From Naegleria gruberi (lineage: Eukaryota): a stretch of DNA of 64,000 nt. The stretch is from NCBI GenBank assembly GCA_000004985.1, contig GG738914.1; one strand, given 5' to 3'. The notes beneath the pieces were generated by a model, which worked only from the letters and a program-made list of their open reading frames with translations, searched no databases and was not told the DNA's origin. Shown here in pieces: positions 17,368-63,678 of this stretch (positions within the stretch are counted from its first letter, which is position 1; the number at the start of each line of letters is the position of its first letter). The position numbers were made by a program, and so were the translations under genes.

Positions 17368-18276
17368 ATTATTTAAAGTTGATATGCTGTTGATTAATAG
17401 TAAGGAAATAATTTTAATAACCCCATCAACCTTCTTATGATGAGAGGCAATGTGTACCAATTGCAGTTGTTGATTTTTCAAGTTTAACACTTGAAGAAGA
17501 TGAGAAATTGGTGATGTATTTTGTTTTTCAAAGAGAACACAAATGAATCTAAAACTGTCGTGAGTTAATGGAAGGTTGTTGCTTACTCCCAAGATTCTCA
17601 ATCTGTTGATGATTCCTTGTTGGTTATTTGATAATGGCTTGTGCGAAAATTATTTGGTCGGTTGTGTTGGAGCAAATCTGCAAGAAACCTCAAAAAGTGT
17701 TCTGATGATGGTTGTGTGACTGTTTTTTTTTGGCGATGGGCGTAGAGGTAAGGTTCCTTCTCCACTTACTTGGAACAAACAAAGACAATAAAAACCTTTA
17801 AGGAAATTGTTGAGCAAAGTACGACACTGTGTAAGATGTCAATAGTTGTGTGTTGGAATGGAAACAAAGCAGACTTTTAAACACTCAGCCTATTCTTGCG
17901 CCTTATTATGTTATTACATAACATTCCTTGTGGTGTTACTGAATTATACAAATGCAATCAAGCAAAGTATTGAGGAGAACAGAACTTGCAGTGTTACTCT
18001 TCAGCTCTCGTAGTACTCGGGCTAGTTTTCTTTAAAGCTAATGAGAGAACACAATAGGATTTAAACGAATGAATTTGGTCCTTATCAAGATCAATATACC
18101 CTAGTACATGTTTAATAAGAACTCTGTAAGGCAAAAGAAGTCGGGTTGTTCCTGCACGCTGTATTCGTCAACCATTTTTGGCATTATAAAGTCCTTGTTT
18201 GTCTTCTCTATTTAATTGTCTACTGTAGTAGTTCGCTTCATGTATTGAGTTGACTGAACTTGAAGTACATATTTAC

Positions 18277-19941
18277 TTAATCTTTCCTTATGAAAACAAC
18301 GGTTGAAGGATCTGTTTCCATTGCTTGTTCTAGAATGTCTTGATCGTGTCTTAGTGATTCCCCTACCATCAAAAAGGCAAAGCCATATGTTTTGCAAGCA
18401 AGCAATGCAATTTCCTTGTCATTACGAAACACCTCGGATGCATAGGAGAGTGCCTGCCCATTATTACCCACTGCTGCCATTACAACTTCACGATCCTTCT
18501 TGAGAGCTTCAGAGCAATAATCCAACACGGCACCATCAACTGTGACTGCCTTAAGAACAATGTCCCTATTATTCTTAATTTCCTCAGAAGCATATTGCAA
18601 AGCAGCTGGATATTCTTCCATGGAGAGCATGACAATTTCTTGATCTGATTTCATTTCCTCAGTTAAATGTTCAATGGCAGCTCCTTTCGATTGTTTTATA
18701 ATTTCCTTAATAAATTCCTTATCGGTCTGAAGTGACTCATCCACATATTCCATAATAATAGGTTGATCTCTTATACACTGCAAGATAAAATCACGATCAG
18801 AGCTGAATTCAGTACCATCAATAGCTTGAGGGTATGTGCTGATGGTCTTCAATAACAGTTCACGATTCTTCAAACTTTCATCCAATACATATTCAATAGC
18901 ACATCCATTAGTTGATACTGCCTGTTGAACAACTTCCAAATCACTTCTTAAATCATCAGAGGCGTATTCGAGAGCTTCTGCACTAGTTGTGACAGCTCTC
19001 AGAACAACTTGCTTGTCACCTCTAAGAGCATCGGAGGCATGTTCTAGAAGATTACCATCCCTTTCCACAGCACACATGACAATATCCTTATCATTTCTCA
19101 TTTCTGGATCAAGATGTTCGAAAACATCCTCATTGGTGGACAAGACATTGAGAATAATATTCTTGTCCTTCTTCAACTCTTCTCCAAAGTGTTCGTACAA
19201 ATTTCCTCCTCCCAACTCTAAAGCATGCATGACTAATTCTCTGTCACTCCTCAATTCCTCACTGGCATCTTCAAAAACATAGACATAGTTTGACATTGCC
19301 TTTTTCACAATTGATTTCACAGATTTAATTCTAGGTGAGGCAAATTCCAAAATTGATCCATCCCTCTCGACTGCAATTCCCATAAATTCTTCATCATCCA
19401 ACATTTTCGCATCACTCACTTCAACCAAACTTCTAGGATCTGTTGTTTCTCTTATCAATTCAATCATTAATTCTCGATTTCTTCTCATTGAATTACTGGC
19501 ATATTGGAGTGAATATGCATTCTCCAAAACAGCTACCTTAACAATCTCTCTATCTTCATCATAGATTACTCGAGGAGGACTCACCTGATCCCTATCATCA
19601 AAATACTCAAGTTTCGACAAATATCTCAACGAGCCTCCTCTCACTCCAACAGCTTGCAATATAAATTCCCTATCATTCAACAATTCATCGGGAATAAATT
19701 GGAGAGCATTTCCAAGAGTATTGGCCACAGCCTTTAAAACAAAATTCCGATCAGAGAGCATTTCCCGAGTAGCATATCTGAAGAAATCATTATTCGATGA
19801 TGAAATGGCCAAAATGAAATTCTTATTTGTGAATTTTTCGGTGGGAATATTTCGAATGGAGACTTCTCCAGTTAAAAGCTTGGAAATTAAAAGAAAATCC
19901 TCATCCGATAAAGAAGATGTACCTGTTTGGTGATTGTTCAT
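18277..19941 (-). CDS. DUF4116-like repeat protein (554 aa), paralog of the 9570..10883 gene.
   Basis: Uninterrupted ORF with ATG in an aaaaaaATG context. It contains ~14 repeats of the same consensus (ELRSDRELVMHALELGG..., NDKDIVMCAVERDGNLLEHAS..., KNDREVVMAAVGNNGQALSYAS...). Confidence 0.7.
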   Translation of the reverse strand: MNNHQTGTSSLSDEDFLLISKLLTGEVSIRNIPTEKFTNKNFILAISSSNNDFFRYATREMLSDRNFVLKAVANTLGNALQFIPDELLNDREFILQAVGVRGGSLRYLSKLEYFDDRDQVSPPRVIYDEDREIVKVAVLENAYSLQYASNSMRRNRELMIELIRETTDPRSLVEVSDAKMLDDEEFMGIAVERDGSILEFASPRIKSVKSIVKKAMSNYVYVFEDASEELRSDRELVMHALELGGGNLYEHFGEELKKDKNIILNVLSTNEDVFEHLDPEMRNDKDIVMCAVERDGNLLEHASDALRGDKQVVLRAVTTSAEALEYASDDLRSDLEVVQQAVSTNGCAIEYVLDESLKNRELLLKTISTYPQAIDGTEFSSDRDFILQCIRDQPIIMEYVDESLQTDKEFIKEIIKQSKGAAIEHLTEEMKSDQEIVMLSMEEYPAALQYASEEIKNNRDIVLKAVTVDGAVLDYCSEALKKDREVVMAAVGNNGQALSYASEVFRNDKEIALLACKTYGFAFLMVGESLRHDQDILEQAMETDPSTVVFIRKD

Positions 19942-27301: not shown

Positions 27302-29008
27302 TTATTCCTTCTTTTGATGTTTACCTGTTGATGGAATAAGTGTTAAAAATACATAAATTGGAATGAAGAGGAGATGTCCAATCCAACGCATTGATGAGAA
27401 GAATTGAATGGAACTATCCCATGAAAGTAAGAGGAATGGTGGTAATAAATAACTGGTGAAAATATTGGTTCCAATGAAGGAGAGGGTTTTGTAAAAGATG
27501 GACATGAATTTGGAATTCTTTTCACTGAAAGTATTCTCCACATCATTCAAAAAGAGTGGACGCACTTTCTTGTGAGCCATTCTTCCAATGAAATGCAAAC
27601 AAATAGCATAGTTTGTCCACATGACATAGTAACCAGAGTAAAGACCGTGCCATGAAGCACTAACGAGGAAAGTAATGATGGTATTCTTAGTGCCAGCTCC
27701 AGATCCAACTCTTGAATAGACATAGTTACGGAGCCATTTGGAAACTGAAACATTCCATGTTGTGGTAATATCACGAAGATTTGAAGAAAGAAGATGATTC
27801 AAATATTCAATTGATTCACATCCAGCATAGCTGTACTGATCTGTCTTTCTATCCTTTTGATATCCCATACCACAGATAATCATGGCCGATTCAGACCAAC
27901 ACCAACCGACAATATATTTGAACTTGATTGCAACCATACATGCCCACGAGAAAGCAAGTTTGTACAATAGAGAACTTCCGAATAATTGTTGATCTCCCAC
28001 TCTATCATAAATAACATCCTCCAATTGTGGTCTATCAAAGATTGGCAATGCCTTCAAGGTCAATACCATATTCACCATAGCAATTAAAAGATTTGTGAAA
28101 ATTTTCTTCCAGTGAATTGGTGGATTTTGACGATTTGGTTTCAATTCCATCTTGTTTAAGAATGAAATATCCTCATCAAACTCTCCATAAATCATTCTCA
28201 AGTAATCACTAATTTCATAAATTGGACCTGTCAAAATTGAAGGGAAGAAGAACATGTAACTGAAATATTCCAATAGCCCTGGCATTCTCTCCATACGATT
28301 TACCTTGTGATAATAATTCATCTTTTCATCAGATTGAGCAATCATTCCATCGTAGATATTCCAAGCAACTGAGATAGTCTTGAGAGTGGCAAGCATTTGA
28401 AGTCCAGTAAAATCCAACTTCCAACCAAGATAATCAGTAATCATTCTATTATAATGACAAATTAACAAGTATCCAAATGAAAAGAAGAAGGCAAATAATG
28501 GAACAATCAATCCCAACCTCGATTTCTTCAAATATTCTCTCACTGAACTACTCATTCCAACTGTCAAAAACAACCACACATAAACAATCAAAGGAATGGC
28601 AACTGAATGCAAAGTAGCACTTCCAAATGTGTAGAAACAATAAAACAATCCAACAATCAATCCAAATAATATCCTAGCCATTCCAAAAGGTAAACTTCTC
28701 ATCAAGAATGCCATCGGAATATTCACAACAATCAAAAACATCATATATGTACAAGCACTCACATCCAAACCAACCAATGAAGCAGCCTTTTCCATCCATT
28801 GATCCACAGGCTTCACCAGCCTTTTCATTGTTTCAATCATCATCACCAAGCCTTCGTGCGAACCAAGTAAAACACCTGGCCATGATATCAACTTTCCAAC
28901 CATTCCATCCAACCATATATTCCCCACCAAATTGGTTCCAATACTTCCTTGTTGCATTAATTTTCCAATCAAATCAGAAACACCCACATCAATAGACGAT
29001 GATGACAT
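27302..29008 (-). CDS. Membrane-bound O-acyltransferase (MBOAT) family, lysophospholipid acyltransferase-like (568 aa).
   Basis: Multi-pass hydrophobic protein with MBOAT signature regions (...WNIYDGMIAQSDEKMNYYHKV... and SASWHGLYSGYYVMW with the conserved His). ATG in a gaaaATG context. Confidence 0.7.
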   Translation of the reverse strand: MSSSSIDVGVSDLIGKLMQQGSIGTNLVGNIWLDGMVGKLISWPGVLLGSHEGLVMMIETMKRLVKPVDQWMEKAASLVGLDVSACTYMMFLIVVNIPMAFLMRSLPFGMARILFGLIVGLFYCFYTFGSATLHSVAIPLIVYVWLFLTVGMSSSVREYLKKSRLGLIVPLFAFFFSFGYLLICHYNRMITDYLGWKLDFTGLQMLATLKTISVAWNIYDGMIAQSDEKMNYYHKVNRMERMPGLLEYFSYMFFFPSILTGPIYEISDYLRMIYGEFDEDISFLNKMELKPNRQNPPIHWKKIFTNLLIAMVNMVLTLKALPIFDRPQLEDVIYDRVGDQQLFGSSLLYKLAFSWACMVAIKFKYIVGWCWSESAMIICGMGYQKDRKTDQYSYAGCESIEYLNHLLSSNLRDITTTWNVSVSKWLRNYVYSRVGSGAGTKNTIITFLVSASWHGLYSGYYVMWTNYAICLHFIGRMAHKKVRPLFLNDVENTFSEKNSKFMSIFYKTLSFIGTNIFTSYLLPPFLLLSWDSSIQFFSSMRWIGHLLFIPIYVFLTLIPSTGKHQKKE

Positions 29009-35186: not shown

Positions 35187-37452
35187 ATGATGAAAACAAG
35201 CTCCTACTCTCTGATGAAGAAGGCCTCTAACAAGGGAAGTAAAACTCTTGCAGCATTGGGTTCTTCTTCTTCATCGCCATCGGTTCTCTCTTGCTATAAT
35301 CATTCATGCTCGATATTGTCATCATCATCCACTAAACAATTATCATCAACAAGTTTATTTACTGGTGGTAATAATAATAACATTTGTAGAAGTTTTTCCA
35401 CCTCTTCTACTAATAGACAATCAATTTCATTAGATAACAATTCATCCTCATCATCATCTTCATCCAATAATAATAAGAAATCATCTTCGGTTTTTGTCAT
35501 GCTCCGAAACTTTCTCATCAAGGCTTTGAAAATCTATGGCAAGATACTTTTAGGACTTGGTGCCATTGTTTTAACAATGTATGGAGCACTTCGTGGATTC
35601 TTGGCCATTATTCACTTTGCACAATTTGATAATCCATCATCTCCTTATTATAACAAGGATTTGGCTGATAAATTGGAAGGTGCTGTTCAGATTGGTGAAG
35701 GATTGAATCGTTATATCAAATCACTCATGACAATTTATGCAATTGCTATCGATTACTTTTGGTTATTGATAACAGAACCATATAATCCTCATTATTGGTT
35801 TGTGGAAAAACCAGATAAGAATAGTGAAGAATTTATACAAAAGAAGAAGCAAGCTCACAAGAGAAATGCAGAAAGATTATTGGATTTATTTATTGAACAA
35901 AGAGGTGTCTATATCAAGATTGGGCAATTTTTGTCATCTTTGGTTTCTGCCATTCCTGATGAATATATTGATACATTGAAAGTTTTGAGAGATAGAGCAC
36001 CAACAATTCCATTTGATGATGTAAGAAAGGTCATTCATCAAGATTTTGGCAAGTCTATTGAGGAATTATTTGACGAATTCGATGAAAAACCAATTGCTGC
36101 AGCAAGGTTAGTTTAATTTCAATCAATTGTTTTTATTTAACTGCACCTTCAATTAATTTCAATTAACTTTGATTTAATCTTTGGAATTAACATTTTGGAA
36201 TTTCTGTTGATATACTTTTTAAACTTTGGATATTAAACTTGAAATCAACATATATAGTATTGCTCAAGTACATAGAGCTCGTACCAAGGATGGTAGATTA
36301 GTTGCCGTAAAGGTACAATACCCATTTGTTAGAAGTTATTTCGAAGGAGATATGAGAACCAACGATTCAATGAGTACTCTCAGTCTCAAACTCTACTACA
36401 TGCAAGAAGATGCTGAAAATATTGACACTCTAGTGGAAATGAATAACAAGTTCAATAGAGAATTGGAAAATGGTTTATATTCTGAATTGGACTTTAGACA
36501 TGAAGCATCTAATGCAAGACAAGCTGCTGACCATATGAAAGACCGTCCAGATGTCTACGTTCCAAAAATGTTTGACGAATTGACAAGCGAAAGAGTACTT
36601 ACTATGGAATTTATTGAAAATGCCTGTACTGCTAACAATGTAGAGCGTATCAAGGAAATGGGATTCAAGGAAGAGGATGTTGCTGAAAGAATTTTGTCTG
36701 CCTTTTCAGATCAATTATTTGTTCACGGTTTCATTCAAGCCGATCCTCATTCTTCAAATGTCTTTGTGAGACGTAATCCTTTGAAACCTTCCGAACCTCA
36801 ATTGGTCCTTTTGGATCACGGATTGTACAAGAAATTCGATGAGGATTTCAGAATTGGTTATGCCAAGTTTGTCAATTCTATTGTCCTAGGAGATGAAAAG
36901 GGAATGAAGGATTATTGTGAATCATTAGGTATTACAGATTACAAAATGTATGCCAGTATGATGATGATGCAAGCTTTTGATCAATTGGAAGGTGGAGAAG
37001 ATTATTCAGGAAAGAATTTTGAGGAATTCAATGATGTCGTCAAGGAACAATTTGAAGGAATTTTGGATATTTACAAGAAAATGCCAGCCGACATGTTATT
37101 CATCTCGAGAGCTGACAATATTTTGAGAGGACTCAATAAGGATTTAGGAGCTAAGGTCAATCGTTTTACTGTTATGGCTAGATCAGCCGCTAGGGGAATG
37201 AACATCAATTCCAAAACACCATCCGAAACTGGAATTTTCTCTCAAATGAATGAATGGAGGAGAAGAATGTACTTTGAATTAAGATTGTACATTCTTGCCG
37301 TTCACTCATGGTTTATCATGTTCTACATGAAACTCTTTGGCATGAATGCAGAAACAATGATGATCAAGAAGGAACACGACAAGATTGAAATGTTGGAAAA
37401 GGAAGTTGATTTATTGGAAACTCCTAAACATCTTGCATCTGAATTCAAGTAA
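35187..37452 (+). CDS. ABC1/ADCK (aarF-domain-containing, UbiB-family) atypical protein kinase. Two exons: 35187..36106 and 36258..37452.
   Basis: Exon 1 ends ...FDEKPIAAA + AG|GTTAGT. A 151-nt AT-rich intron ends tatatAG. Exon 2 (T ATT GCT CAA GTA CAT AGA GCT...) restores the family motif AAAS-IAQVHRA...KDGRLVAVKVQYP, followed by HGFIQADPHSSNVFV and the catalytic LLDHGLYK region. Frames agree (split codon AG+T gives Ser). Confidence 0.8.
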
Positions 37453-37531: not shown

Positions 37532-40500
37532 ATGTTCAACTTTCACAAGTATGCACTCGTCACTTCCCCTCCGAATCAACAGGAACAACAACAAACAATT
37601 CTATCCAACAACAAATTCCAACCACTTTTGACAGGAATTTCCTTCGGAGATATGCTTTTAATTCTAGAAACAGTTCCATGCACAAATGATCATCATCACG
37701 ACGATGACAATTCCTCTTCCTCACAGCAATCATCATCAATGAGTTATGTGCAACGAGTGAATATTCATGCCCTGCACAAGCACGGCTATAAACTCTATGA
37801 TCATCGTAATAGACCTCAGAAACCACAACTCTTCAGCACCTGTGGTTGGATCCCAACCAGTTATCTGACAACCATTCTGCCAGATCCATTGGTGTGTAGT
37901 CCCAATAAGAGTTTGGATCTGGGAAGGGCACTCGTTGATAGAGAAGAAGATATTGAACAAGCAGAGCAGTATCAGAAGGAGCATGGTATGAGGATGGATA
38001 ATTATGAGAGTTTCTGTAGGGATATGTATCGATTTGAGTGTTGGAATGATGTGGAGAAGGTCAGAGGAGGAGAATTGGATCGATTGGAGAAGGTTTCCAC
38101 ACAGCAATGTCATGTACATTGTTTGGAAGCTCCAAAATATGATGAGTTCAATATTGGTGTGGAAAGTTTTGAGAAGGAGAAGGAGGAGTGGAAGAAATTG
38201 GCGAGGGAAAAGTTTAAGGACTGTAGAGATGTATTCTTTGTGAAGAATTCGAAACATCCTGGATATTTGCATTGGCTCATTAGGAGTGCCTACATTTCAG
38301 AGACAATTATTAATGCTCTGAATGCCTTTGGAGATCGTCCTTGCTTGGGTTATCGTAGAAGAATTTCTGCAACTGAATTTGAAACTTTTCATAGATGGTT
38401 CACTTTCGAACAGTTGCATGAACGAGTGATGAGATTTGGTTTGGGTCTCTATCAATTTGAAAAGGAATTTTTAAATCAACCAAGACCATTTAGTCAAGAG
38501 GAAGGCAGAGGATTCGTTGGAATTTGTTCGAGCAATAGAGCCGATTGGTTTGTAGCTGATTGGGCCTCTCTCACTCAGAGTTTCATTTCTGTTGCATTGC
38601 CTCAAACCAAAGTCGATTGCATTAGTGAAGATATTGTGAATATGGAAAGTGTTGATGTTTTGAAAAGTATTTCACATGAAATTATTTGCATTATCAACAA
38701 TTCACAAATTCCATTATTGGTTTGCAGTCGTGATTTGACAGTCAAATTTTTGAAATTAATCAAACATGGATTGATTCCTTCTGTTAAGGTAATTGTTCAA
38801 ATGGAAGATTTCCTTGTAAAGAAGGAAGAATTTGATGAAACAAGTTATAAGAATGCAGGAGAGGAAGAATTGACCAAATATTTGAAAAATTTGAGAGCTG
38901 TTCATCAGGGAAAAGTGAAACAACATGCTAAGAAATTAACTTCTCAAGATGATTCCACGTCATCACCACTCTATTATCTCATGAAGAGTCGCTATAAGAA
39001 TTCAAATCTTAATATGAATGTTTCCATTGAGGAATTGTGTGATTTTAATAAGAGCGATGATGAATTTGTCATTCACAATTACATTTCTGAAAATGATATC
39101 AACTTGGATTGTAAGTCAATCATGTTAGCTAGAGAACTCTCGATAGAATTGACAGATATGACAAGTATCGAATTGAGTACTTGCAAGGACTATCCAACTT
39201 TTAACAATGCGCTCAGATTTAACATTAGAACTAATAATTCAGTGAACGACTTGACCACCATTGTCTATACTTCTGGATCGACTTCAACAGAACCTAAAGG
39301 AGCTGTCATGACCGATCGACAATATAATGAAAATGTACAAATGGAAATCTATCATTACCATCCACTAGTGTTCATTACCTATGCTCCATTGTCACACATT
39401 ACAGATAGAATGAACACTACAGCATGCATGGTAAATGGTGGAAGAAGTGGATTCAATTGTGGAGAGATGGATAAGGTATTTGATGATTATCAATCTATTC
39501 AACCAGTGACTGAGTCAAACACTCCAAGATTTTACAATATTCTTTATGCAGAATATCAAAGATTGAAAGTTTTGGAAGGTGATTCACTCACCCCTGAAAA
39601 GGAAGAAGAAATTATGCAAAAGGTCAGAAATATGCTTGGAGGAAGAATTAAATCCCTCGTGACAGGTGGTGCTTCAACTTCACCACAAGTAGTTGAATTT
39701 TTAAAGGAGTGTTTCAAATGTAATGTTTACAATGGGTATTCTTCAACAGAATGTGGATATATTGGACCAATTGGTGTTGATGGAGTTGACTATTTGAGTG
39801 AGAAAATTCAAGAGGAAAACAAACAACTTCCTAGACATATTATGAAATTGAAAGATGTGGAAATCAAATTGGAAAGCGTTCCAGAACTTGGCTATTTTAT
39901 AACTGATGTGCCATTTCCAAGAGGAGAAATTTGTGTCAAGAGCTCGACTATAATTTCAGGATATTACAGAGATACTGAAAAGACTAAACTTTCATTCGAT
40001 TCGGAAAATTATTTCCAAACAGCTGACATTGGTGAAATTGATAAGGAAAAGCTCAGATTGAGAATTATTGATAGAAAGAAGAATATTTTCAAATTGAGTC
40101 AGGGAGAATTCGTAGCTCCAGAAAATTTGGAAAATTTGTTCATTTCCAAAACATTATTTGTGGATCAAATTTACATTTACGGAAATTCTGAAAAATCCTT
40201 CCTTGTGGCTGTAATTGTTCCAAGGAATTTACCATTACTGAAAGAGAAAGCTAAGAGTATGGCTATAGAAAGAAATCAAATCTTTGAAGATTCGGATTTA
40301 TCGAGAAATGGTTTCATTTACAAGGTCATTCAAGATGATTTGAACAAGTGTGCAAGAGAAGCCAAATTGGAATCGTACGAAATTCCAAAAGGTTTCATTA
40401 TTGAGATGGAAATATTCACTCCAGAGAATGGTAAAATGACAGCATCTTACAAGCTTTGTAGACCAGCACTTGTAAAGTCTTACAAGGAAGATTTAGAGAA

Positions 40501-42062
40501 ATTGTATAAGGAAATTGAAGGAGAAGATATGTCCACTCTGGATCAAGTTTCCAATAAGGTTCAATTGGAGGAATTTTTGAAAAAACTATTCGAAAGTGGA
40601 GGAGTTGTCGATTCGTTGAGCTCTGTTCGATTATCCAACCTTCTGTCACAGAAATTCAATGTAAAACTTGGTGCAGATAAAATCTTACAAGAATGCAAGA
40701 ATAATGAAAATCCAGCACTTGCCATTATGGAAATGATTGAGAAGCTGCTGGAAAATGGACAAGCCCAAGATGAATTATTTAGAAATGATGAAGAGTTGTT
40801 GCGGGAAGTTAAAGATCTCATCAAGGATATTCCAATAGTTGACGAAACTCTTTCGAAAACTATCGAACTGAATAAGAATAGAAATATTTTAATCACTGGA
40901 TCAACTGGATTCATTGGAGTTGGATTGGTATGTGAGCAATTATTCAGCAATCCAGAATCCAATTTGACATGTATTATAAGAGGAAAATCATTGGATAATG
41001 AAAGGGAAAGATTAATCAGTAATGTAATGAATTATTGTTATCATTTTTCACCTGAAGAGAAGAAATCTCTATTGGAAACATTTAATAGTCGAGTTTCAGT
41101 AATTTTAGGAGATATTTCAATGAATAGATTTGGACTAGATCAAGATATTTATAACAAATTAGAAACCGATATTGATACAGTCATTCATTGTGCAGCCAAT
41201 GTCAACTTCATCATGAATTATACTCAACTTGAAGCACGTCAATGTTCAAAGTGTTATTGAATGTTTGAAATTATGTACCTCTCAAAGAATCAAACACTTG
41301 CACTTTGTTTCAACTATTAGTGTCATTCCATATTCAATGATTGATCAATATAAGGAGCTGAACAAGCTTGTCGCACAAGATTTCATTCCTCTTTCTCTTC
41401 AAAATTTCAATGACCTTTCAGATGGTTATCCACAATCCAAATACATTGCAGAGCATGCTCTCCGTTTAGCTATGGAACAATGCAACTTTAGTCAATTGAA
41501 AATTTACAGACCTGGACTCGTAGTTGGACATACCATGAATGGATTCAGCAGTGTGAGGGAATGGATTTGTAGATTGATATGTGGATTTGCTCATTTGGGT
41601 GAAATTCCAATTGAATATTCCAAACATGGCATGCAAGTTATTCCAGTCAATTGCTGCGCCAAAGGAATTATTGACCTCATCAATAATCAATCAAAATCCA
41701 ACACTACAATTCATCATTTAACCAATTGGAACAAACTCTACAGAACCATTGATAACATCCTGCTAGCCATGAAGAATTTAAATCTCACATGGAAATCCAT
41801 CCATTACAAAAATTGGATTGAAAATATTCACACACAAATGAATAATGGAAAAATGGAAAAGTTTCCACAAATGACAAAAGAAAATTCGATATTTGGAATT
41901 GTACACATGTTTCCACTCGAACATGACATGCTTAATATTGATTCGACAATGGAAGAGCAAATTTGCCAACACGATTTGAGTTATCTTTCGGATGAGAAAG
42001 TGGACGATAGAAAGTTAGTGGAAAGGGAAATTGAATTTCTAATTAGAAACAAACAGATCTAA
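37532..42062 (+). CDS. NRPS-like adenylation - thiolation (PCP) - thioester reductase enzyme of carboxylic-acid-reductase / Lys2 type. It has a ~250-aa N-terminal extension and an apparent +1 frameshift near 41237..41241.
   Basis: AMP-binding core motifs are present (TIVYTSGSTSTEPKGAVMT, YGYSSTECGYIG, GEICVKSSTIISGYY, DRKKNIFKLSQGEFVAPENLE). A carrier-protein motif (FESGGVVDSLSSVRL) and an R-domain Rossmann (ILITGSTGFIGVGL...VIHCAANVNF) follow. ORF 37532..41260 and ORF 41229..42062 (…NVQSVIECLKLCTS...HFVSTISV...YPQSKYIAE with the SDR YxxxK motif) overlap in different frames. The joined reading LEAR-NVQSVIECL requires removing 1 nt, and no intron is possible. Confidence 0.7.
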
Positions 42063-42475: not shown

Positions 42476-45400
42476 ATGACTCAACAAGTTAGTACAACCA
42501 ACATGTTGCGTTTAGTCTTGTTTCTACTCTCATTGATGTGTTGTTTGTCCACCATAACACATGCCACAACCATCAATGGTTACACTTTGGATTTGTTCAT
42601 TGGTGGTAATTTTACGAGTGGATTGAAAGTTGCCGAAACTTCACCAACCTTCTCAACCAACAACTTTGAATATCGACTCGTCTATCTGGATAAGAGAAAC
42701 GGTGATTTGTACTATTCTGTTTCAGGAAAGGTTATTCGAAAGCTCGATAAGAATGGAATTGTAACCAATGTGGCAGGAAGCATGAGAAATAATGGTAATT
42801 ATGAAGATATAGCCACCATTCAAGATTATTACTATGCCTTGGACAGAGAATTGATAGATATTGGTGGTTTAATTATTGACACCAAGTCAAATGATATTTA
42901 CTATTTAAATAATGGAATTTATATGGAAAGAATTCGAAACTCTGATAAGAAATCGATTATTGCAGTTGGTTATGGCACCAATAACGAACTTCCCTCTGAA
43001 GGATTGGGAAATCAAATCAATTTTGCTTACAATTATCCTTCTTACAATAATTACGTTCGTGGACTTGCCATAAATGGTAAGAATGAAATATTTATTGTCC
43101 AAAGAAGTTCAATTTCCAAATATAATATTGGAAATTATAGCGTTACTAATATTTTGACAGATTTTGAACCTGGCACTTATTCACAAATTGTTCTTTCCAA
43201 AGACGAAACTTTTTTGTTTGCCAAAAATGGTGAAGCAATTGATAAGATTTCCATGAATGGACAAGTGACATTTGGTTATACTAGTATTTCTAATTTAATG
43301 AGTATTGATACTGTTGATAATGAACTCTACATGTTAACTTTAACTGGTGTTTACGTTTTCAGAAACAATTCGAATCAACTTATTGCTGCCGGAAGTTCAG
43401 GAAGTTTCGTCGATGGCATGAATTCTACCAATTTACTAATTAATTATGGTACTACCATGCTTGTTGATGATAATAAGGATATTTACTTGACTGATTTGTA
43501 TAGTTCTGTAATTCTCAAGATTGACCATGCTAGTCAATTGGTCACAAATTTGTTAGCTGTTGAAATTCCAACATCTAGTGAAACAGTTTATTCAGCAAAG
43601 AATTTTACTAGTAGAGGTATTTCACATGCAGTTCATAATAAGGTCAATGGTTTCGTATACATGTGTGATTCGAATGGAAATGTATTCGAATATGACAATA
43701 ATTTAGTTTCTCAAAAAGTAACTGGTTATTCCTGTATTGATATTGCTGTAAATTCCCTCGGAGAAGTATACTTCCTTTCTAATTACTTTATTTATCAATT
43801 ATTAAGCAATGGAACTGTTATTACCTTTGCAGGAGATGGAACTTGGGGTGTTCCTATAAATGGAACTTATCTTGACCAAAACCCAGTTGCAGCAGTTAGA
43901 TTTGGTTTCTATTCGAATAATGACATGTTTCTTCAATCCAGTTATTACATTTTCAGAGTTGACCACACAACCAAATTTGTCCAAAAAATTTATTCCTCAA
44001 CCAATAGTGAATTAAGAATTACAATCATCGATCCAGACACTGACAACTTGTACACTTCTGAAGGATCGTCAATTAGTTTAGTTTATCCTAATGGAATTGC
44101 CGAAATAGTTGCTGGAATTAACTCTCAACCAGCAGTTCGTTCATTCAAGAGAAAGATTAGTTTATCCGATGTAGGAGAAGATGCATTCGCCAATTACATT
44201 AATCCAACTGGTATGTCCATTGGAGCCGATGGAAAATTATACATTTCCTATCAATATATGGTTAAGAGACTTGAGAATGGATTGTTATGGACACAGCAAT
44301 TTGTGGACACACAACAAGGACCTATGAGTGCTGCCTTTATTAGTGATGTGGTCATTTTGGGAAGATTTGGAGATGCAATCATGTTGACGAATCCAAATGG
44401 AAATATTTATTTATTGAATCCAGTTTCTAGTTTTACCTGTTTTGGTAATTTACCTTCTTCATCAAGTGTTTGTTCAGGTTACGGTTCATGTGTTGGTCCA
44501 AATCGATGCAACTGTCAAAATACCAACTTTGGTTTCGAATGTGAATATTCCACTTGTTTCGACGTTTCAGGATTCGACTATCAAACTGTTTGTGGAGGTG
44601 TCGGTAAATGTTCCATACAAGATCAATGCTCATGTCCATCTGGATACACTGGCACCACCTGTTCCACACCACTTTACAATATCTGTTATGGAATTTCCTC
44701 AAATTCGTCGAATGTTTGTTCTGGAAAGGGAAGTTGCGTTTCGACTGATTCCTGTAAATGCAATGCTGGAAGAGTTGGAAGTTATTGTCAGTATGAGTTT
44801 TGTGCAAGTACTTGGAATGCAAATTCTGAAACCTTGACATGTGCTGTTCCATCCTCGAGTTCTGTTGAGGTCAATCAGGAAATTGTGGCTGTCAATCAAT
44901 TAAGTTCAAAGGTTTTGAGGTTTAGTAGAACTCCATCAGTTTCTATAACGTTCCCATCTGATTTTTATTCGTATGTGTTAAAGACTTATCCTGAAATTGG
45001 TGATCAGTTGACAGTTGTTTCTTCCATTTATGATCCAACACTTGACACTTCTCAAGAATTGCTTGTAGTGAGTTCGACTGCTTCAGTTTCTGTCTTTAAA
45101 AATACTTCAGATATTCTCCCAGTCTATAATCTTCCAAATCCAATTGTCATTCAATTCAACAGCATCAAAATTGACAAGACAGGTGGCAGTTTCAACTATT
45201 CCTGTATGTATTATGACACTGCATCAAATTCTTGGAGCAGTAGTGGAATTAAGAGTACCATCACATCCTCACAACTTTCCTCTACTTATTACACATTCTC
45301 ACTCAAGTGTGAAACCTATCACTTGACATCTTTCTCAGTAATTGACATGAATTATAAAAAGACAAGTCGAGATGACACATTACAATTAGGAGGATTGACT

Positions 45401-45538
45401 ACTGGTGGAATCATTGCACTTGCTGTTACATTGGGAGGTGCTGGTTTGATTTGTATTGTGGTTGGAATAATCGTGGCTGCCATTATTGGCGTTTGTATGT
45501 GGACGAAACATAACAAGAAGAAGAATATGGCCAATTAG
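42476..45538 (+). CDS. Type-I membrane glycoprotein (1020 aa): signal peptide, large extracellular region, tenascin-type EGF-like repeats, one C-terminal transmembrane helix.
   Basis: N-terminal hydrophobic signal (MLRLVLFLLSLMCCLSTITHA). EGF-like CxCxxGxxGxxC units (CSGYGSCVGPNRCNCQNTNFGFECEYSTC; CSGKGSCVSTDSCKCNAGRVGSYCQYEFC). TM segment GIIALAVTLGGAGLICIVVGIIVAAIIGVCMW with a short basic tail. Confidence 0.7.
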   Translation: MTQQVSTTNMLRLVLFLLSLMCCLSTITHATTINGYTLDLFIGGNFTSGLKVAETSPTFSTNNFEYRLVYLDKRNGDLYYSVSGKVIRKLDKNGIVTNVAGSMRNNGNYEDIATIQDYYYALDRELIDIGGLIIDTKSNDIYYLNNGIYMERIRNSDKKSIIAVGYGTNNELPSEGLGNQINFAYNYPSYNNYVRGLAINGKNEIFIVQRSSISKYNIGNYSVTNILTDFEPGTYSQIVLSKDETFLFAKNGEAIDKISMNGQVTFGYTSISNLMSIDTVDNELYMLTLTGVYVFRNNSNQLIAAGSSGSFVDGMNSTNLLINYGTTMLVDDNKDIYLTDLYSSVILKIDHASQLVTNLLAVEIPTSSETVYSAKNFTSRGISHAVHNKVNGFVYMCDSNGNVFEYDNNLVSQKVTGYSCIDIAVNSLGEVYFLSNYFIYQLLSNGTVITFAGDGTWGVPINGTYLDQNPVAAVRFGFYSNNDMFLQSSYYIFRVDHTTKFVQKIYSSTNSELRITIIDPDTDNLYTSEGSSISLVYPNGIAEIVAGINSQPAVRSFKRKISLSDVGEDAFANYINPTGMSIGADGKLYISYQYMVKRLENGLLWTQQFVDTQQGPMSAAFISDVVILGRFGDAIMLTNPNGNIYLLNPVSSFTCFGNLPSSSSVCSGYGSCVGPNRCNCQNTNFGFECEYSTCFDVSGFDYQTVCGGVGKCSIQDQCSCPSGYTGTTCSTPLYNICYGISSNSSNVCSGKGSCVSTDSCKCNAGRVGSYCQYEFCASTWNANSETLTCAVPSSSSVEVNQEIVAVNQLSSKVLRFSRTPSVSITFPSDFYSYVLKTYPEIGDQLTVVSSIYDPTLDTSQELLVVSSTASVSVFKNTSDILPVYNLPNPIVIQFNSIKIDKTGGSFNYSCMYYDTASNSWSSSGIKSTITSSQLSSTYYTFSLKCETYHLTSFSVIDMNYKKTSRDDTLQLGGLTTGGIIALAVTLGGAGLICIVVGIIVAAIIGVCMWTKHNKKKNMAN

Positions 45539-53325: not shown

Positions 53326-55962
53326 CTACTGTTTCCACATTTTATTGATTTTCTTACAGAAAACATCACTCATCAACAGTTGATTTCCATTCGAATTGAA
53401 ATTTCTGAAACAACTTTGCATTTCACATTCCTTTCCAAAATATCCCTCATCACAAACACAACTATTCGGTGCAGCACAATAACCACGGGATGAGCATGCT
53501 AGGGCATTTGTTGAATTATATCCAAAACATGAAAATTCATCTCTTGTGTAAAGGGAAACTCTTGTTTGTCTAAGAGCTACCAAATAAGGAATTCCATCGT
53601 ATAGTTTAGGATAGAGATCTGGAGTGGCTATTGGTGGTTGTCTATATCGAATAGGAGAAGTTTGAAAGTAATCATTCACACCACCTGCATATAAATTACC
53701 TTTCCTTGTGATCAAATAATAACTCTTGTCCATCGTATAGCCCGAAACTACATACGAATCATCGGAAGGTAATATGATGGGATAGGGTTGACCATAAAAA
53801 TAATAAGGCTTTCCAATTGTTGAGATAAGAAGCATAGAAGAAGTACCTCCTGTAACCAATTGCCTAACTTTGACATCTCCATTAACTCGAATAAAGTTTA
53901 CAATATTTGTTTCTGAACTCAATGACAAGTATTTTGAATTATCATTATTTCCACAGCCATACACATTTCCTTGATTGGTTAATAATAGCAATGTTGCTGC
54001 ATAGGTTATTACTTTCAAATCCACAACTCTTTCACCAACTCCTAAAAAGGAAATATCTAACATGGTAAATGAATTGAAAACTGTTGGAGCATTTACACCA
54101 AATCCAAATTGATAATTGGAATTTCTACCAATTCCAAGGACACTTCCATTTTTCATCAAGAAGAAAATATTGTCGTCTCCTATTAAGGCGAATTTTTCAA
54201 CATTCGAATAGAAAAGTTGTGGACTTGAAGTGAAGGTAATTGGAAGAGAGAATTGGTAAGCTGGGGATCCCCAACCATACAAATCTCCATTCGAAAGCAG
54301 AATGAATCCAACTTGGTTTCCCAATTCGATTGAAACTATTTCTTGTTTCGTCAAGTTGGACGAAATTAAACTTTCCTTAACTGGTAATATAGAAGATGGG
54401 AAGAGTCCAGAGCAGAGTCCCCAATACTCCATTGAAGTGATATTTCCATTAGATTTTGAAATTATCACTGAACAATCTCCATTCGATTTGGCAGAAATAA
54501 TCGAAACACTGTTCGAAATGTTCATTGATGGAATTGTCAAATTTCTAGGATAACGAATCTCTCTTTCTTCACCTTTAGCCAATATTCCATCTCTATTTGT
54601 TCCCCAAACATATGCCATCCCTTCAGAAGTGACTGAAACTCCATTTGCATCTGTAAACCCAACTTTCGTCAAGTTTCCACCATTCATCATTACAATCTTA
54701 TCAAAATTTGGACCATAAAAATCATGTCCATAATTATCTTGTCTTCCATATCCCCAAGAATACAAATTTCCACCAATAATACAAGCCGAAATCAAACCAG
54801 AAGCATAACATTCGGTAACATTCGAATTAATGTAACTCATTTTTCTTGGAACCCAAACAACCTGTCCAGCACTTGGATCACACTGTTGTGCATCATTATC
54901 ACCAAACACATACACATTTCCATTTTCCAAAATTGTCAAGGCATGTGAAACTCCAAAATGAATTTTTTTGACTTTTGAAGGAAGCAATGTGACTTGTCTA
55001 GGTGTTTCAGTATAATCAAGAGAAGTATCATTCACACCCATAGATCCACGATAATTACTTCCCCACGTATATAATTTACCATCCTTATCAATTGCTGCCA
55101 TTACTGACCTTCCACTAGAATAGGAAGATTTCGAACCACTTAACGAAACTATATTTTGCAATGAAGCAATCTGATTAATCACATAACTATTAATAGCAGT
55201 TGCTACTCCTCTAATATAATCTCCACATCCAAAACTGAAAACATGTCCATAATTAGTAAGTGCAAAATAAGTTTGGCAATAAATATAACCACAAATTTCA
55301 ATATCAACAATTTCTACATTCTGATAAGGTTGAAAATCATCTTGATTGATGTAATTATTGAGAATGAATGTTTCTGTCCAAGGTGTCATTGAATTAGACG
55401 TGTCAAGATATTCTTGAATGAAAACTTTTCCATCACTTGTCAAAATTAAACATGAAAATAAGCAAACCATTTTAGTGACAGTTCTGTTACCAGTAATGAA
55501 TGGATTTTCATTCTTTCCTTCTTCTGTATAGATGTATGTTGGTTCTGGAAGTGTGAAAATTTTTGGTGGTGAAGTTTTTGGATTTCCTCCACTTACGAGA
55601 ATTGTTTGATTGATTGGCATGGATGTGGTTGTGTTGGAGTATTGTAGAATGTAGTAAATTGAATAAGTTGCTGGAACTATTTGTTGAAGCTTGACAGAAA
55701 CGTCACGTGCTTGAATGCCAGTTGTCAATCTGTAAGATTCAGAGCCGTTGAAGAATAAAGTGGAAAGATAAGAGTTGGGTTCTGCTGGATATCCGATTGA
55801 TGTTGGGTAATAGAAATTAAAACCATTGTTGTCAGCGTTACCAAAGTTGTAAATATTTTTCACATTAATTGAACAGCTGGCATGATGTAATATTGACAGG
55901 AAGCATATCACAAACAATAGACCTATCGGTAGCAATTGTTCCCCGCTACGTTTTACACTCAT
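53326..55962 (-). CDS. Secreted RCC1-like beta-propeller repeat protein with a C-terminal EGF-like module (878 aa).
   Basis: N-terminal signal (LLPIGLLFVICFLSILHHASC). RCC1-type repeats (LYTWGSNYRGSMG, VYVFGDNDAQQC, LYSWGYGRQDNYGHD, AYVWGTNRDGILAKG, LYGWGSPAYQFS, VYGCGNNDNSKY, LYAGGVNDYFQTSP). C-terminal CSSRGYCAAPNSCVCDEGYFGKECEMQSC. Confidence 0.65.
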   Translation of the reverse strand: MSVKRSGEQLLPIGLLFVICFLSILHHASCSINVKNIYNFGNADNNGFNFYYPTSIGYPAEPNSYLSTLFFNGSESYRLTTGIQARDVSVKLQQIVPATYSIYYILQYSNTTTSMPINQTILVSGGNPKTSPPKIFTLPEPTYIYTEEGKNENPFITGNRTVTKMVCLFSCLILTSDGKVFIQEYLDTSNSMTPWTETFILNNYINQDDFQPYQNVEIVDIEICGYIYCQTYFALTNYGHVFSFGCGDYIRGVATAINSYVINQIASLQNIVSLSGSKSSYSSGRSVMAAIDKDGKLYTWGSNYRGSMGVNDTSLDYTETPRQVTLLPSKVKKIHFGVSHALTILENGNVYVFGDNDAQQCDPSAGQVVWVPRKMSYINSNVTECYASGLISACIIGGNLYSWGYGRQDNYGHDFYGPNFDKIVMMNGGNLTKVGFTDANGVSVTSEGMAYVWGTNRDGILAKGEEREIRYPRNLTIPSMNISNSVSIISAKSNGDCSVIISKSNGNITSMEYWGLCSGLFPSSILPVKESLISSNLTKQEIVSIELGNQVGFILLSNGDLYGWGSPAYQFSLPITFTSSPQLFYSNVEKFALIGDDNIFFLMKNGSVLGIGRNSNYQFGFGVNAPTVFNSFTMLDISFLGVGERVVDLKVITYAATLLLLTNQGNVYGCGNNDNSKYLSLSSETNIVNFIRVNGDVKVRQLVTGGTSSMLLISTIGKPYYFYGQPYPIILPSDDSYVVSGYTMDKSYYLITRKGNLYAGGVNDYFQTSPIRYRQPPIATPDLYPKLYDGIPYLVALRQTRVSLYTRDEFSCFGYNSTNALACSSRGYCAAPNSCVCDEGYFGKECEMQSCFRNFNSNGNQLLMSDVFCKKINKMWKQ

Positions 55963-57824: not shown

Positions 57825-57905
57825 GCAGACTTGGCCGAGTGGTTAAGGCGACAGACTTGAAATCTGTTGGGGAAACCTTCGTAGGTTCGAATCCTGCAGT
57901 CTGCG
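57825..57905 (+). tRNA. tRNA-Ser(UGA), type II.
   Basis: Acceptor GCAGACT/AGTCTGC with discriminator G. D-arm GCC-GAGTGGTTAA-GGC. Anticodon stem-loop ACAGA-CTTGAAA-TCTGT, giving anticodon TGA. Long variable arm TGGGGAAACCTTC. T-arm GTAGG-TTCGAAT-CCTGC. Confidence 0.85.
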
Positions 57906-57987: not shown

Positions 57988-58068
57988 GCGGTCTTGACCG
58001 AGTGGTTAAGGTGATTGACTAGAAATCAATTGGGGCGACCCGCACAGGTTCGAGTCCTGTAGATCGCG
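57988..58068 (+). tRNA. tRNA-Ser(AGA), type II.
   Basis: Acceptor GCGGTCT/AGATCGC with discriminator G. D-loop AGTGGTTAAGG. Anticodon stem-loop ATTGA-CTAGAAA-TCAAT, giving anticodon AGA. Variable arm TGGGGCGACCCGCA. T-arm CAGGTTCGAGTCCTG. Confidence 0.85.
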
Positions 58069-58515: not shown

Positions 58516-61500
58516 ATGCAAGGAAGAACGCTACTGCTTTTCACGCTCATCCTTTTATGTGTGCTAGCTTATTGTTGTGTAGAGAATGTTACTGCTGAAT
58601 CATGGGGAAGTTTCTTGAGTCAATCTATGCAAGTTACAAATGGTAAGTGGAGTGTAATTTGACATTTTGGAAGAATTAAGCATTATGATCATTATTCATA
58701 TTTAGGAAAATTATTTTCATCATCAAAAAGATCACAAGTTGTTTGTCCTCCAAATACCTTTGGAAGTAAATGTAATAATAAGGTGAATCTCCCAGATACA
58801 TATCCTCTCAAAAAAGGTCCGTTAATGATTGGCCAGATGGAGATTAATGATGGAAATTCTTATTCATGCGAGTGGACTATTTTTGTTTTAGAATTTAATC
58901 AAAGTTTTAGTTATCCCTGTTTTTTTGTCGTAGCCGATACAACTGTTCCACCAATCAATTACACTCTAACCTATTCAGTGTGGTCTGCAGGTTTCATAAT
59001 TTTTTCAAAGGATGTTGTGTTTATTGATGGGATAATTCCAACATTGAATACTAAGGTGACCTACATGGGTGATTTCAATTTCTTGATTGACAAACCAATG
59101 AGCTGGGATGATTCTGCCAACACATGCCAAGTTGGAATAGTTCAACAAAAGATTTCTTCATTGCAAGAACTTTCAAAGTTGAAAAACTTAACTACATTTG
59201 ACATTCCTTGCAATTCATCTTCAACAATCAAGGTTCCATATTTTGGATATCCTTACTAAGATAGTGTTTTCCTATCATAATTTAAAATATTCAATGTATG
59301 ATAATTATATTCAAGAAAGAACCTTAATTGAATACTTTCCAACATTTTTTGCAAATCTTGGAAACACGACAGACATTAGCATTTCAAACTCTGATAGAAT
59401 TATCTCTTTCTATAGCATTGTGAGTTCTAACATTCCTGTTTTGAAATGCAAAGTCCAATTGAGTCTAGGAAATTCTCTCACTACCCTATTCGAATCTAAT
59501 TGTTCTTCCTTTTTGAACTTTACCCATTCACTCACTCAATACAGCACCAATACGAATGCCTCCATCATAGTCACTCTCTCAAATCAAGAATACATGTTTG
59601 AAGAAAGTGAAACTTTTGACATGAATCTATCAAATTGTTCTCAGTGTCAAAATGGAATTTGTCGATTGTCTCAAAGTAGTATTGATGGTTCAACTCATTG
59701 CGAATGCTCAGGCTTGTTTGAAGGAGAATTTTGTCAAGAGTGTAAAGATGGTTTTGTCAAATTATCGGACAAGTGCGTTTGTCCGAATGGTTATCAACAA
59801 ATTGGTTTTGGCTGTGTCTTTGTTAGTAGCTCAAACGCCACTTCCTGTTTTGGATATAGTGTCAAAGAAGGTGATCGTGCATGTTCTTATCATGGAATTT
59901 GTAATTTGAATACTCATTTGTGTGAATGTAGTGAAAACTTTGATGGTGACAGATGTTCAACATGTAAGACAGGTTACACTGGTTCAAAGTGTGATATTCC
60001 AATTTGTCATGATGTGAGTGCCATCGATTCAACTGTTTGTAATTCCAAAGGTGATTGTGTAGCACCTGACAGCTGTCAATGTAATGCAAATTATTATGGA
60101 CCTAATTGTGCAAGCTTTAAATGTAATGGCATTGAAAAGAATAATGCTTTAGTTTGTTCATCACATGGTACATGTTCCAATGCTGATGTATGCACTTGTT
60201 CCTCAAATTATGATTCGTCCACTTTCTGTTCAAAATGTCTTCCTTCCTACAATGGAACTGATTGTTCCATAAAAATTTGCAGCCCAGAAACCACTTGTAG
60301 AGGCCATGGACAATGTAACGATCAATTACAATGTATCTGTAATGGAAAATTCACAGGCACCTATTGTGAAAAGTGTTTAGATGGTTGGGTTGGCAGTAAT
60401 TGCGACATTACTTGTTCTGCACAGACAACTTGTTCTGGAAAGGGAAGTTGTTCATCAACTGGATCTTGTATCTGCTCGGCAACTTCCTATGGAGATCATT
60501 GTGAGAATTGTAAAGATGGTTGGTATGGAGCTAATTGCGACTTTAGAATAGATTTTACATCTTTTGAATTTAATGAGAATGGTGATTCGATTAGTGCTTC
60601 TGTAAACTCTGTCATGAAGAAGAATATCAACTGTTCATCGCTCATTGTAAACACTGAAGTGTTAGGACAAGGTGCAACTTGTGTATTGGATGGTGATAAG
60701 AGTTTATTGATCATTAATCTTGGCACCTTGGCAACTATTGTCATTAATGGAAATCTCATTATCAGAAACTACATTGACAGCAAATTAACAACCAATGCCA
60801 AAGTGTCAGGAACTTTCTATCAAAGAGTTGATCCTGTCGCCTCCTTGACATCTGAAAAGTCTGTCATTGGTTGTGGAACAATGTTCTTGGATGCTTCTTC
60901 ATCCACTTCATTGGACAGAAGAAGATTGTTATTCACATTCTCTGCAGTCACAGCTCCAAATAATCAAGCCTTATCAAACCTTAATAATCTCATTTCTGGA
61001 AATAGTGCAAGTACTGTCAAATTCTCAGTGAATAATTTTACAGGTGGATCTTATTCTGTTCAGGTTGCTGTTCAGAGCACATTCTCTGGTAGAGTTTCGT
61101 ATGCTACGTTTGCATTCATGGTGACTGATGCCTCCCCACCAAATTTGAGTATTAAGAATGGTGTTTCGAGTACTGTGACTATTGGAAACTCATTTGTGGT
61201 TACACCAATTGTTTCATTCCCTTCATGTTATTCTGGTTCTGCTTTAATATCTAATCTGAAATTTACCTATACTCAAGTTAGCGGTGCTGCACTCCAGATT
61301 AAACAAAAGAATGAATTGTTGGTGTTTAGTTCAGATTATACCAAGTTGACTGAAGAAGGTAAATATGTATTTAGTTTGAGTGCTGTTGAACAGGGATATC
61401 CAGGAGCATCCATCACATTCGAAATCATCGCAGTAGCCCTTCCATTGAAAGTTTCGTTCAATATTCGTGACATGTCTCAATCCATGGAAGATAAAATCTC

Positions 61501-63597: not shown

Positions 63598-63678
63598 GCG
63601 GTCTTGACCGAGTGGTTAAGGTGATTGACTAGAAATCAATTGGGGAGACCCGCACAGGTTCGAGTCCTGTAGATCGCG
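63598..63678 (+). tRNA. tRNA-Ser(AGA), second copy.
   Basis: Identical to 57988..58068 except for one substitution in the variable arm (GGGGAGACCC against GGGGCGACCC). The 7 nt upstream (gtgtaag) and ~27 nt downstream (atcagttttatcttttaaaaa) are also shared. Confidence 0.85.

Follow-up and report, generated by a model that had tools for sequence, protein, structure and literature searches.

A predicted carboxylic acid reductase-type gene of Naegleria gruberi split by a single surplus base

Work on carboxylic acid reductases (CARs; EC 1.2.1.30) has dealt with bacterial and fungal enzymes and with their use in biocatalysis. The bacterial type I enzymes, namely the CARs of Nocardia iowensis (NiCAR), Segniliparus rugosus and Mycobacterium marinum and the mycobacterial FadD9 (PDB 5msc, 5msd, 5msp and 5msw), carry an ACSL-like adenylation (A) domain, a peptidyl carrier protein (PCP) domain and a reductase (R) domain in a single chain. 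Replacement by Ala of any of five residues (His, Glu, the phosphopantetheine-bearing Ser, Tyr and Lys) abolishes CAR activity (PMC5826065), and Asp984 of NiCAR has been suggested to act as a gate for the active site of the reductase (Gahloth 2017, cited in PMC5826065). The same A-PCP-R logic, with TGxxGxxG and GYxxxK motifs, is found in the fungal CARs and in reductases resembling nonribosomal peptide synthetases (NRPS-like), such as NcCAR of Neurospora crassa and AtCAR of Aspergillus terreus, and in alpha-aminoadipate reductase (Lys2). The fungal CARs and NRPS-like reductases depend on a phosphopantetheinyl transferase, and in the fungal CARs a hydroxylic residue replaces the Lys of motif A10 (PMC5826065). 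Enzymes of the ACSL/FadD type share the A-domain motifs and have neither carrier nor reductase domain, the acyl group going to CoA. The subject of this report is a gene of the A-PCP-R type in a 64,000-nucleotide (nt) stretch of Naegleria gruberi DNA (assembly GCA_000004985.1, contig GG738914.1; here called the window), whose reading frame is broken once within the reductase domain. We consider it quite probable that the gene is a CAR/FadD9-type enzyme gene conserved within the genus, that it belongs to a eukaryote-type clade of such enzymes, and that the frame break is either an artefact or a very recent or allelic change.

The gene lies on the plus strand, contains no intron, and is represented in this assembly by two open reading frames (ORFs) that are pieces of one gene. 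An uninterrupted frame is absent, owing to one surplus base:

37532..42062, plus strand: whole gene, 1509 codons and a stop after removal of one base
37532..41260, plus strand: ORF1, 1242 amino acids (aa), from the ORF listing
41229..42062, plus strand: ORF2, 277 aa, in frame +1 with respect to ORF1, from the ORF listing
41225..41258, plus strand: interval that holds the surplus base, narrowed by orthologue comparison to 41239-41243 (CGT-C-AAT)

ORF1 and ORF2 overlap by 32 nt. The end of ORF1 reads ...VIHCAANVNFIMNYTQLEAR-QCSKCY before its stop codon, and the start of ORF2 reads ...NVQSVIECLKLCTS.... Conceptual deletion of any single base within 41225..41258 restores the 1509-aa ORF, and deletion at 41239 or 41240 yields the peptide NYTQLEAR/NVQSVIECLKL (the slash marks the junction), which aligns gaplessly with NYSQLKPT/NVHSVVECLKL and NYDQLRSV/NVGSVVECLKL of orthologues. 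A preliminary description of this DNA, made from the letters alone, had quoted the same two ORFs and had placed a +1 break in the reductase domain that could be mended by deleting one base near 41237-41241; the ORFs and motifs that it quoted are all present, and the mended LEAR/NVQSV junction is the one found here. The same position emerges from the TIGR01746 profile, of which the end of ORF1 covers positions 1-110 and ORF2 covers 112-304. The two ORFs therefore hold contiguous halves of one reductase domain, and the profile fixes the break to within one codon. Inspection of the sequence at the conserved junction revealed no homopolymer run, no known slippery motif and no stop codon. An intron in place of the frameshift was considered and is ruled out, because the gapless orthologue alignment demands the loss of exactly one nucleotide.

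The organism is a heterolobosean (Heterolobosea, Discoba). The preliminary description had taken it for an amoebozoan, which the public N. gruberi protein P0001 corrects by its complete identity; homologues do exist in many Amoebozoa (see below). P0001, annotated as 'predicted protein', is 1202 aa long and 100% identical to the ORF1 product, begins at Met41 and ends in ...QCSKCY at the frameshift; it is thus truncated at both ends, owing to the frame break. The start MFNFHKYA is kept, as the pattern MFNF(H/R)..A, in orthologues from Naegleria lovaniensis (P0002, 1375 aa, 64% identity), Naegleria fowleri (P0003, 1524 aa, 47%) and Willaertia magna (P0009, KAL9644932, 1496 aa, 50%). All three read through the junction gaplessly in a single frame. 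Relatives of the gene carry names such as 'acyl-CoA synthetase' or 'hypothetical'. With its reading corrected to 1509 aa, the gene is seen to specify a complete CAR-type reductase that is conserved in the genus of the pathogen N. fowleri.

Two further features of the orthologues were seen. One GT-AG intron interrupts the gene in N. lovaniensis (L001:10506-10557, 52 nt) and another in N. fowleri (L002:10152-10197, 46 nt), at different positions within the A domain, and neither intron occurs in the N. gruberi gene; this indicates lineage-specific gain or loss. In addition, the N. lovaniensis P0002 model stops early, and its conserved C-terminal ~130 aa run on in two other frames (L001:12150-12640). 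The first of these tail breaks coincides with a GAAAG run and looks like a long-read indel error in a homopolymer.

From the sequence of the repaired protein, the predicted domain order is SH3-like, relic ZZ, adenylation, carrier and NAD(P)H-dependent thioester reductase, in one polypeptide. The A, carrier and reductase domains come together in a single chain in N. gruberi only after the one-base removal. Their positions, with those of their motifs, are as follows:

38279..40486, plus strand: adenylation domain of the ACSL/CAR type, aa ~250-985; Pfam AMP-binding, best NCBIfam match carboxyl_red
38819..39211, plus strand: ~130-aa insertion in the N-terminal A subdomain (alignment columns ~490-620, gapped in all other members)
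39266-39301, plus strand: P-loop YTSGSTSTEPKG, aa 579-590, adenylation domain
39386-39397, plus strand: PLSH motif, adenylation domain
39734-39757, plus strand: GYSSTECG motif, adenylation domain
40019-40036, plus strand: TADIGE motif (motif A7), adenylation domain
40064-40132, plus strand: IIDRKKNIFKLSQGEFV motif, adenylation domain
within 40421-40465, plus strand: A10 Lys, adenylation domain
40544..40756, plus strand: carrier domain (PCP or acyl carrier protein-like), aa ~1005-1075, with a shortened loop between helix 1 and helix 2
40598-40624, plus strand: GGVVDSLSS, aa 1023-1031, with the phosphopantetheine Ser1028
40886..41687, plus strand: thioester-reductase domain (short-chain dehydrogenase/reductase, NAD_binding_4), aa ~1119-1385, containing the frame break
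40895-40918, plus strand: TGSTGFIG, aa 1122-1129, reductase
41304-41324, plus strand: FVSTISV, reductase
41424-41453, plus strand: GYPQSKYIAE, reductase
41688..42062, plus strand: reductase C-terminal subdomain and stop, aa 1386-1509

Pfam searches with the repaired protein recovered AMP-binding (PF00501, E 2.4e-35) and NAD_binding_4 (PF07993, E 7.2e-47, with all 258 profile positions covered). The PP-binding profile (PF00550) gave no match at E<=0.01 in the whole-protein scan and was found only when the carrier segment was isolated, so that two of the three domains expected in the preliminary description were recovered directly and the third only in this restricted way. No match to AMP-binding_C (PF13193) was obtained with the repaired protein, and this profile was present in 2 of 40 relatives scanned. 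The C-terminal subdomain is alignable with the C-termini of the N. fowleri, Willaertia and amoebozoan proteins (for example at ENSIFGI...FP), and the N. fowleri orthologue passes the TIGR01746 cutoff (215 bits against 213.35). Among the four heterolobosean sequences, only that of N. gruberi has TADIGE (40019-40036, motif A7) in place of TGD, and only it has Ser for Asn in the motif GxxNxxD/E (41538-41564).

The closest described proteins are the bacterial CARs, by sequence as well as by predicted fold. When the N. fowleri orthologue was compared with PDB sequences (phmmer), CARs came first (5msc, E 1.5e-84; 5msp, E 1.1e-79; 5mso, E 2.3e-75), and the alignments to 5msc and 5msp are each continuous from the P-loop, via the carrier Ser, into the reductase. 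The top NCBIfam match is NF041592, carboxylic acid reductase (E 3.3e-124). The preliminary assignment of a CAR architecture to one gene is borne out by these profile matches and by the 5msc alignment over all three domains. An AlphaFold2 (AF2) model of aa 251-1231, built from a 57-sequence alignment, had a predicted local distance difference test (pLDDT) score of 86.3. In a Foldseek search of the PDB with this model, each of the top eight matches was to the A or A-PCP part of a CAR (E 4e-45 to 5e-40), with target-normalised template-modelling (TM) scores of 0.73-0.80 for seven of them, and the next class was luciferases, at 9e-24. The modelled carrier consists of four helices, with Ser1028 opening helix 2.

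The five residues essential in CARs are all retained: H622, E859, S1028, Y1299 and K1303 align with NiCAR H300, E521, S689, Y956 and K960, respectively. The adenylation domain keeps H622, E859 and K974. The Ser of the DSL motif, whose presence the preliminary description had made a test of its own assignment, is there and is invariant among 59 aligned family members. T1261, Y1299 and K1303 of the reductase centre are conserved as well, the Tyr and Lys being positioned downstream of the frame break. The Naegleria protein also shares with bacterial CARs the block KLSQGEFV...YGxSxxSxLxAVxVP and the A10 Lys; in keeping this Lys it departs from the fungal CARs, and the profiles that it fits are those of bacterial CARs and ACSLs. 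It differs from the bacterial enzymes in being the product of a eukaryotic nuclear gene with ~30% identity to them or less, in an N-terminal extension of ~245 aa (SH3-like and relic ZZ), in two A-domain insertions (~130 aa and ~30 aa), in the P-loop STSTEPKG, in a shortened carrier loop with GGVVDSL, and in a Gly at the position of Asp984. The ~130-aa insertion is confined to Naegleria and Willaertia in the family alignment, and was predicted by AF2 to be largely helical, mostly with high pLDDT.

If the repaired protein is active, its chemistry would be that of the characterised CARs. The A domain would use ATP to turn a free carboxylic acid into an acyl-AMP. The acid would most likely be aliphatic or fatty, and possibly aryl; such substrates are favoured over amino acids because the A domain is nearest to the CAR/FadD9 and long-chain acyl-CoA ligase profiles. 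The acyl group would then pass to the phosphopantetheine thiol on Ser1028, and the carrier would swing to the reductase, where Thr1261, Tyr1299 and Lys1303 would reduce the thioester with NAD(P)H and an aldehyde would be released. The enzyme chemistry is known, and what is new is a eukaryotic version of a CAR. The 'secondary metabolism' envisaged in the preliminary description is unsupported, and no biosynthetic neighbours were seen.

Several observations weigh against the CAR/FadD9-type reading; those that concern the break are taken up with it in the next paragraph. The NF041592 equivalog cutoff of 1300 bits is missed by a wide interval (415.8 bits for the N. fowleri orthologue and 364.9 for P0001). 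The carrier domain barely attains its Pfam cutoff: the isolated N. gruberi segment scores 21.7 bits against 20.8, a marginal pass, and the two other Naegleria species score 19.7 and 18.3, below the cutoff. The P-loop STSTEPKG is atypical, with a one-residue insertion and a Gly replaced by Ser, and this form is kept only in the four heterolobosean sequences. Finally, the switch residue Asp984 of NiCAR corresponds to Gly1328 in N. gruberi, and strict aldehyde release is for this reason not assured. Gly occupies this position in all four heterolobosean sequences, from Naegleria and Willaertia, and in 31 of 40 eukaryote-type members, as might be expected if the terminal reductase carried out a four-electron reduction to the alcohol, in the manner of MxaA, or took its thioester in trans. 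The R domain taken alone is indeed nearest MxaA (4u7w, E 1.3e-36) and a polyketide synthase R domain (8v1x). However, over its full A-PCP-R length and in its A-PCP fold the protein resembles CARs, and several bacterial-type sequences also have Gly or Ser at this position, so that the residue is not diagnostic; we regard alcohol formation or action in trans as unlikely, though worth keeping in mind. A third assignment, to alpha-aminoadipate reductase (Lys2) or a generic NRPS-like enzyme that activates amino acids, is very improbable. Lys2 has the same A-PCP-R order, and its profile TIGR03443 does match (E 5.3e-55), but the match covers the PCP-R part only (profile positions 742-1360), at 186.4 bits against a cutoff of 1030. 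Moreover, the A domain fits ACSL/CAR profiles instead, no AMP-binding_C match was obtained, and in the Foldseek comparison CAR A domains stand 17-21 orders of magnitude above other ANL enzymes. The labels 'NRPS-like' and 'Lys2' that were first attached to the gene are therefore poor ones. Many NCBIfam FadD/ACSL profiles also match, at aa ~530-860, with all cutoffs missed.

As to the cause of the frame break, a base-call or consensus error, or else a very recent or allelic lesion, is the probable explanation, and within that pair an error in the reference assembly is the most likely; the frameshift is in all likelihood trivial. The downstream sequence is conserved, ORF2 runs for 273 codons without a stop as far as the conserved C-terminus, and none of the catalytic Thr, Tyr and Lys has been lost, which together argue that the break is recent or artefactual. 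Since synonymous sites are saturated between the species (pS 0.7-0.8), amino-acid conservation and a relative-rate count were used instead of dN/dS. Identity of the reductase to its orthologues is 55-66% after the break against 47-49% before it. The competing possibility that the extra base is real and fixed in NEG-M, the gene being a young pseudogene or encoding a truncated A-PCP protein without the catalytic reductase half and incapable of releasing its product by reduction, is a serious one that we judge on balance to be doubtful. It draws on the location of the surplus base outside any homopolymer, on the usual accuracy of Sanger reads (of which the N. gruberi reference assembly was presumably made), on the acceptance of the truncation by public annotation, and on the substitutions private to N. 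gruberi at positions with at least 90% conservation. There are four of these, G831A (in TGD), E1282Q, N1340S (in GxxNxxD/E) and D1373N, and only the first precedes the break. Beyond the break N. gruberi also has 13 private changes and N. lovaniensis 5, but the trend falls short of significance (p = 0.096; Fisher p = 0.11). In a plain pseudogene, acceleration would be expected before the break too, and there the lineage-specific changes of the two species are balanced (N. gruberi 37, N. lovaniensis 39), with no acceleration. Further, conservation downstream is at least as high as upstream, and the three related species retain the frame at the junction. A programmed +1 ribosomal frameshift, or correction at the RNA level, would account for the 32-nt frame overlap and the intact downstream frame, and is nonetheless hardly credible. 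Because the NV.SV residues are conserved, any shift would have to take place no later than CGT-C-AAT, a site with neither a stop nor a rare-codon pause nor a known slippery heptamer. A single frame specifies this peptide in N. lovaniensis, N. fowleri and Willaertia, and nuclear indel editing is not known from Heterolobosea. Neither reads or transcripts nor another N. gruberi assembly came to light. Searching assemblies for exact matches to the public protein gave no second copy of the N. gruberi junction, nor did a scan of metagenomes that allowed a gap of variable size at the junction, and a further metagenome scan with the repaired reductase domain yielded no independent junction copy.

The favoured reading, that of a CAR/FadD9-type enzyme, also places the gene in a family that word-index homology searches scarcely touch: these recovered few relatives, and an exhaustive HMMER search, which returned 1364 proteins at E<=1e-30, was needed to reveal it. 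The named nearest members are all eukaryotic. They come from Heterolobosea (Willaertia), from non-dictyostelid Amoebozoa (Rhizamoeba, Balamuthia, Cavostelium, Stenamoeba and Protostelium), from dictyostelids (Acytostelium, Tieghemostelium, Polysphondylium and Dictyostelium dimigraforme) and from a bdelloid rotifer (Philodina), and bacterial CARs (Maricurvus, Hellea) rank lower among the matches. AMP-binding and NAD_binding_4 were found in 40 of 40 members scanned, and PP-binding in 34. A neighbour-joining tree was made on 710 columns with 100 bootstraps; many of its tips are unnamed metagenome or transcriptome sequences, and its deep topology is indicative only. In this tree the eukaryote-type group is split from the bacterial-type group in 100 of 100 bootstraps, and Heterolobosea are monophyletic (100) and stand beside other SH3-bearing sequences, including Rhizamoeba (72-80). 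By sequence comparison, then, the gene is assigned to a eukaryote-type clade of Heterolobosea, many Amoebozoa and a bdelloid rotifer that is distinct from the bacterial CARs.

Several members of this clade, all uncharacterised, can be named: Willaertia magna KAL9644932, Balamuthia mandrillaris KAL6055781 ('long chain acyl-CoA synthetase 7'), the dictyostelid 'Carrier domain-containing proteins' of Tieghemostelium (KYQ96747), Polysphondylium violaceum (KAF2072257) and Acytostelium (XP_012747882), and 'FadD9' of Philodina roseola (AEN94433). They share the A-PCP-R core, with 33-50% identity over it, and several have an SH3-like and/or ZZ N-terminus. The amoebozoan members differ from the heterolobosean ones in having a canonical ZZ finger, an STGxPKG P-loop and GGDSL, and in being without the heterolobosean insertions. 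Literature searches (Naegleria or amoebae with CAR, FadD9 or NRPS-like) turned up no paper describing the eukaryote-type clade, no biochemical data for any of its members and no published function for the homologues just named. One paper mentions fatty acyl-AMP ligases (FAALs) in two Naegleria species without detail. Bacterial contamination or a very recent transfer is ruled out by the spliceosomal introns of the orthologues, by the SH3 and ZZ modules and by an intron in the upstream neighbour.

Based on these comparisons, we put forward tentatively the possibility of an undescribed eukaryotic family in which a CAR-type reductase of carboxylates or fatty acids is joined to protein-interaction modules of the SH3 and ZZ kinds, the family being distributed patchily in amoeboid protists and bdelloid rotifers. 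The patchiness suggests one ancient bacterial acquisition followed by transfer between eukaryotes or by repeated loss. If such a family exists, it would allow these organisms to convert free acids to aldehydes or alcohols independently of CoA, at a particular place in the cell. A distinct eukaryotic CAR clade with SH3 and ZZ modules also suggests that the lipid or signalling metabolism of protists has a source of aldehydes or fatty alcohols that is yet to be explored, and it would add to the pool of sequences for biocatalysis.

The first ~250 aa, earlier reported to have no recognisable similarity, appear from profile comparisons to comprise an SH3-like domain and then a degenerate ZZ finger:

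37544..37879, plus strand: SH3-like domain, aa ~5-116 (family profile against PDB)
37670-37741, plus strand: His/Asp/Ser-rich low-complexity loop insert in the SH3-like domain, aa 47-70
38024..38179, plus strand: remnant of a ZZ-type zinc finger, aa ~165-216; most of the Cys ligands are gone

A profile of eight family N-termini matched almost exclusively SH3 domains in the PDB (best 2lcs, E 4.4e-5), and the aligned residues ~5-116 show the SH3 signature GD.L.ILE...GWS...G.[VI]P..[FY]L. Six homologues gave sub-cutoff Pfam SH3 matches (E 1e-4 to 1e-2) at the same aligned place, and the N. gruberi N-terminus alone gave no SH3 match in Pfam. The SH3-like domain also bears a heterolobosean distal-loop insert. 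An AF2 model of the N-terminal 260 aa, from a three-sequence alignment, had a pLDDT of 41.5 and was unusable, and the SH3 call is for this reason based on the profile searches.

The ZZ region is identified through its relatives. A ZZ match was found in 11 of the 40 family members scanned, and the Pfam cutoff (PF00569) is passed by P0015 (25.4 bits) and P0017 (23.4 bits). Alignment by hhalign of the heterolobosean region with the ZZ-bearing region of relatives gave a probability of 97.6% and E 4.3e-12. The second CxxC pair has been replaced (FNLCxxC to FNIGVES), and most of the ligands that would make up the two zinc sites are substituted in Naegleria and Willaertia; because of this loss the region is regarded as a non-functional relic. 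The SH3-like/ZZ front end would probably serve to tether the enzyme to a partner or to a cellular site.

The GC content is ~33% throughout the window. Upstream of the reductase gene and co-oriented with it lies a gene for an ABC1/UbiB atypical kinase (35187-37452), which ends 79 nt before the reductase gene start and is split by a GTTAGT...TAG intron of ~150 nt (~36107-36257). The preliminary description was right about the presence and orientation of this neighbour; the adjacency itself is not conserved, the flanking genes being different at the N. lovaniensis and N. fowleri loci, which are the two that were examined. Because of this difference the adjacency is attributed to chance and given no functional weight, and a functional link between the reductase and the UbiB kinase is rejected on the same grounds. 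About 8.5 kb upstream of the reductase gene is an ORF for a membrane-bound O-acyltransferase (MBOAT; 27302-29008, minus strand).

Elsewhere in the window, ARAGORN made an odd call of 93 nt at 6053-6145, with the anticodon undetermined. Two ORFs consist over nearly their whole length of DUF4116 repeats: 9570-10883 on the plus strand has nine copies (E 1e-127) and 18277-19941 on the minus strand has 13 (E 1e-147). Between 12000 and 18000 the plus strand has a strong GC skew of +0.21 to +0.27, over three long minus-strand ORFs; the minus-strand ORF at 15490-17601 had no Pfam match. Three tRNA-Ser genes lie on the plus strand, at 57825-57905 (TGA), 57988-58068 (AGA) and 63598-63678 (AGA). Large ORFs with EGF-like repeats are found around the locus, at 42476-45538 (plus strand), 53326-55962 (minus strand) and 59198-63454 (plus strand), one of them with an RCC1-like domain and one with a REJ domain.

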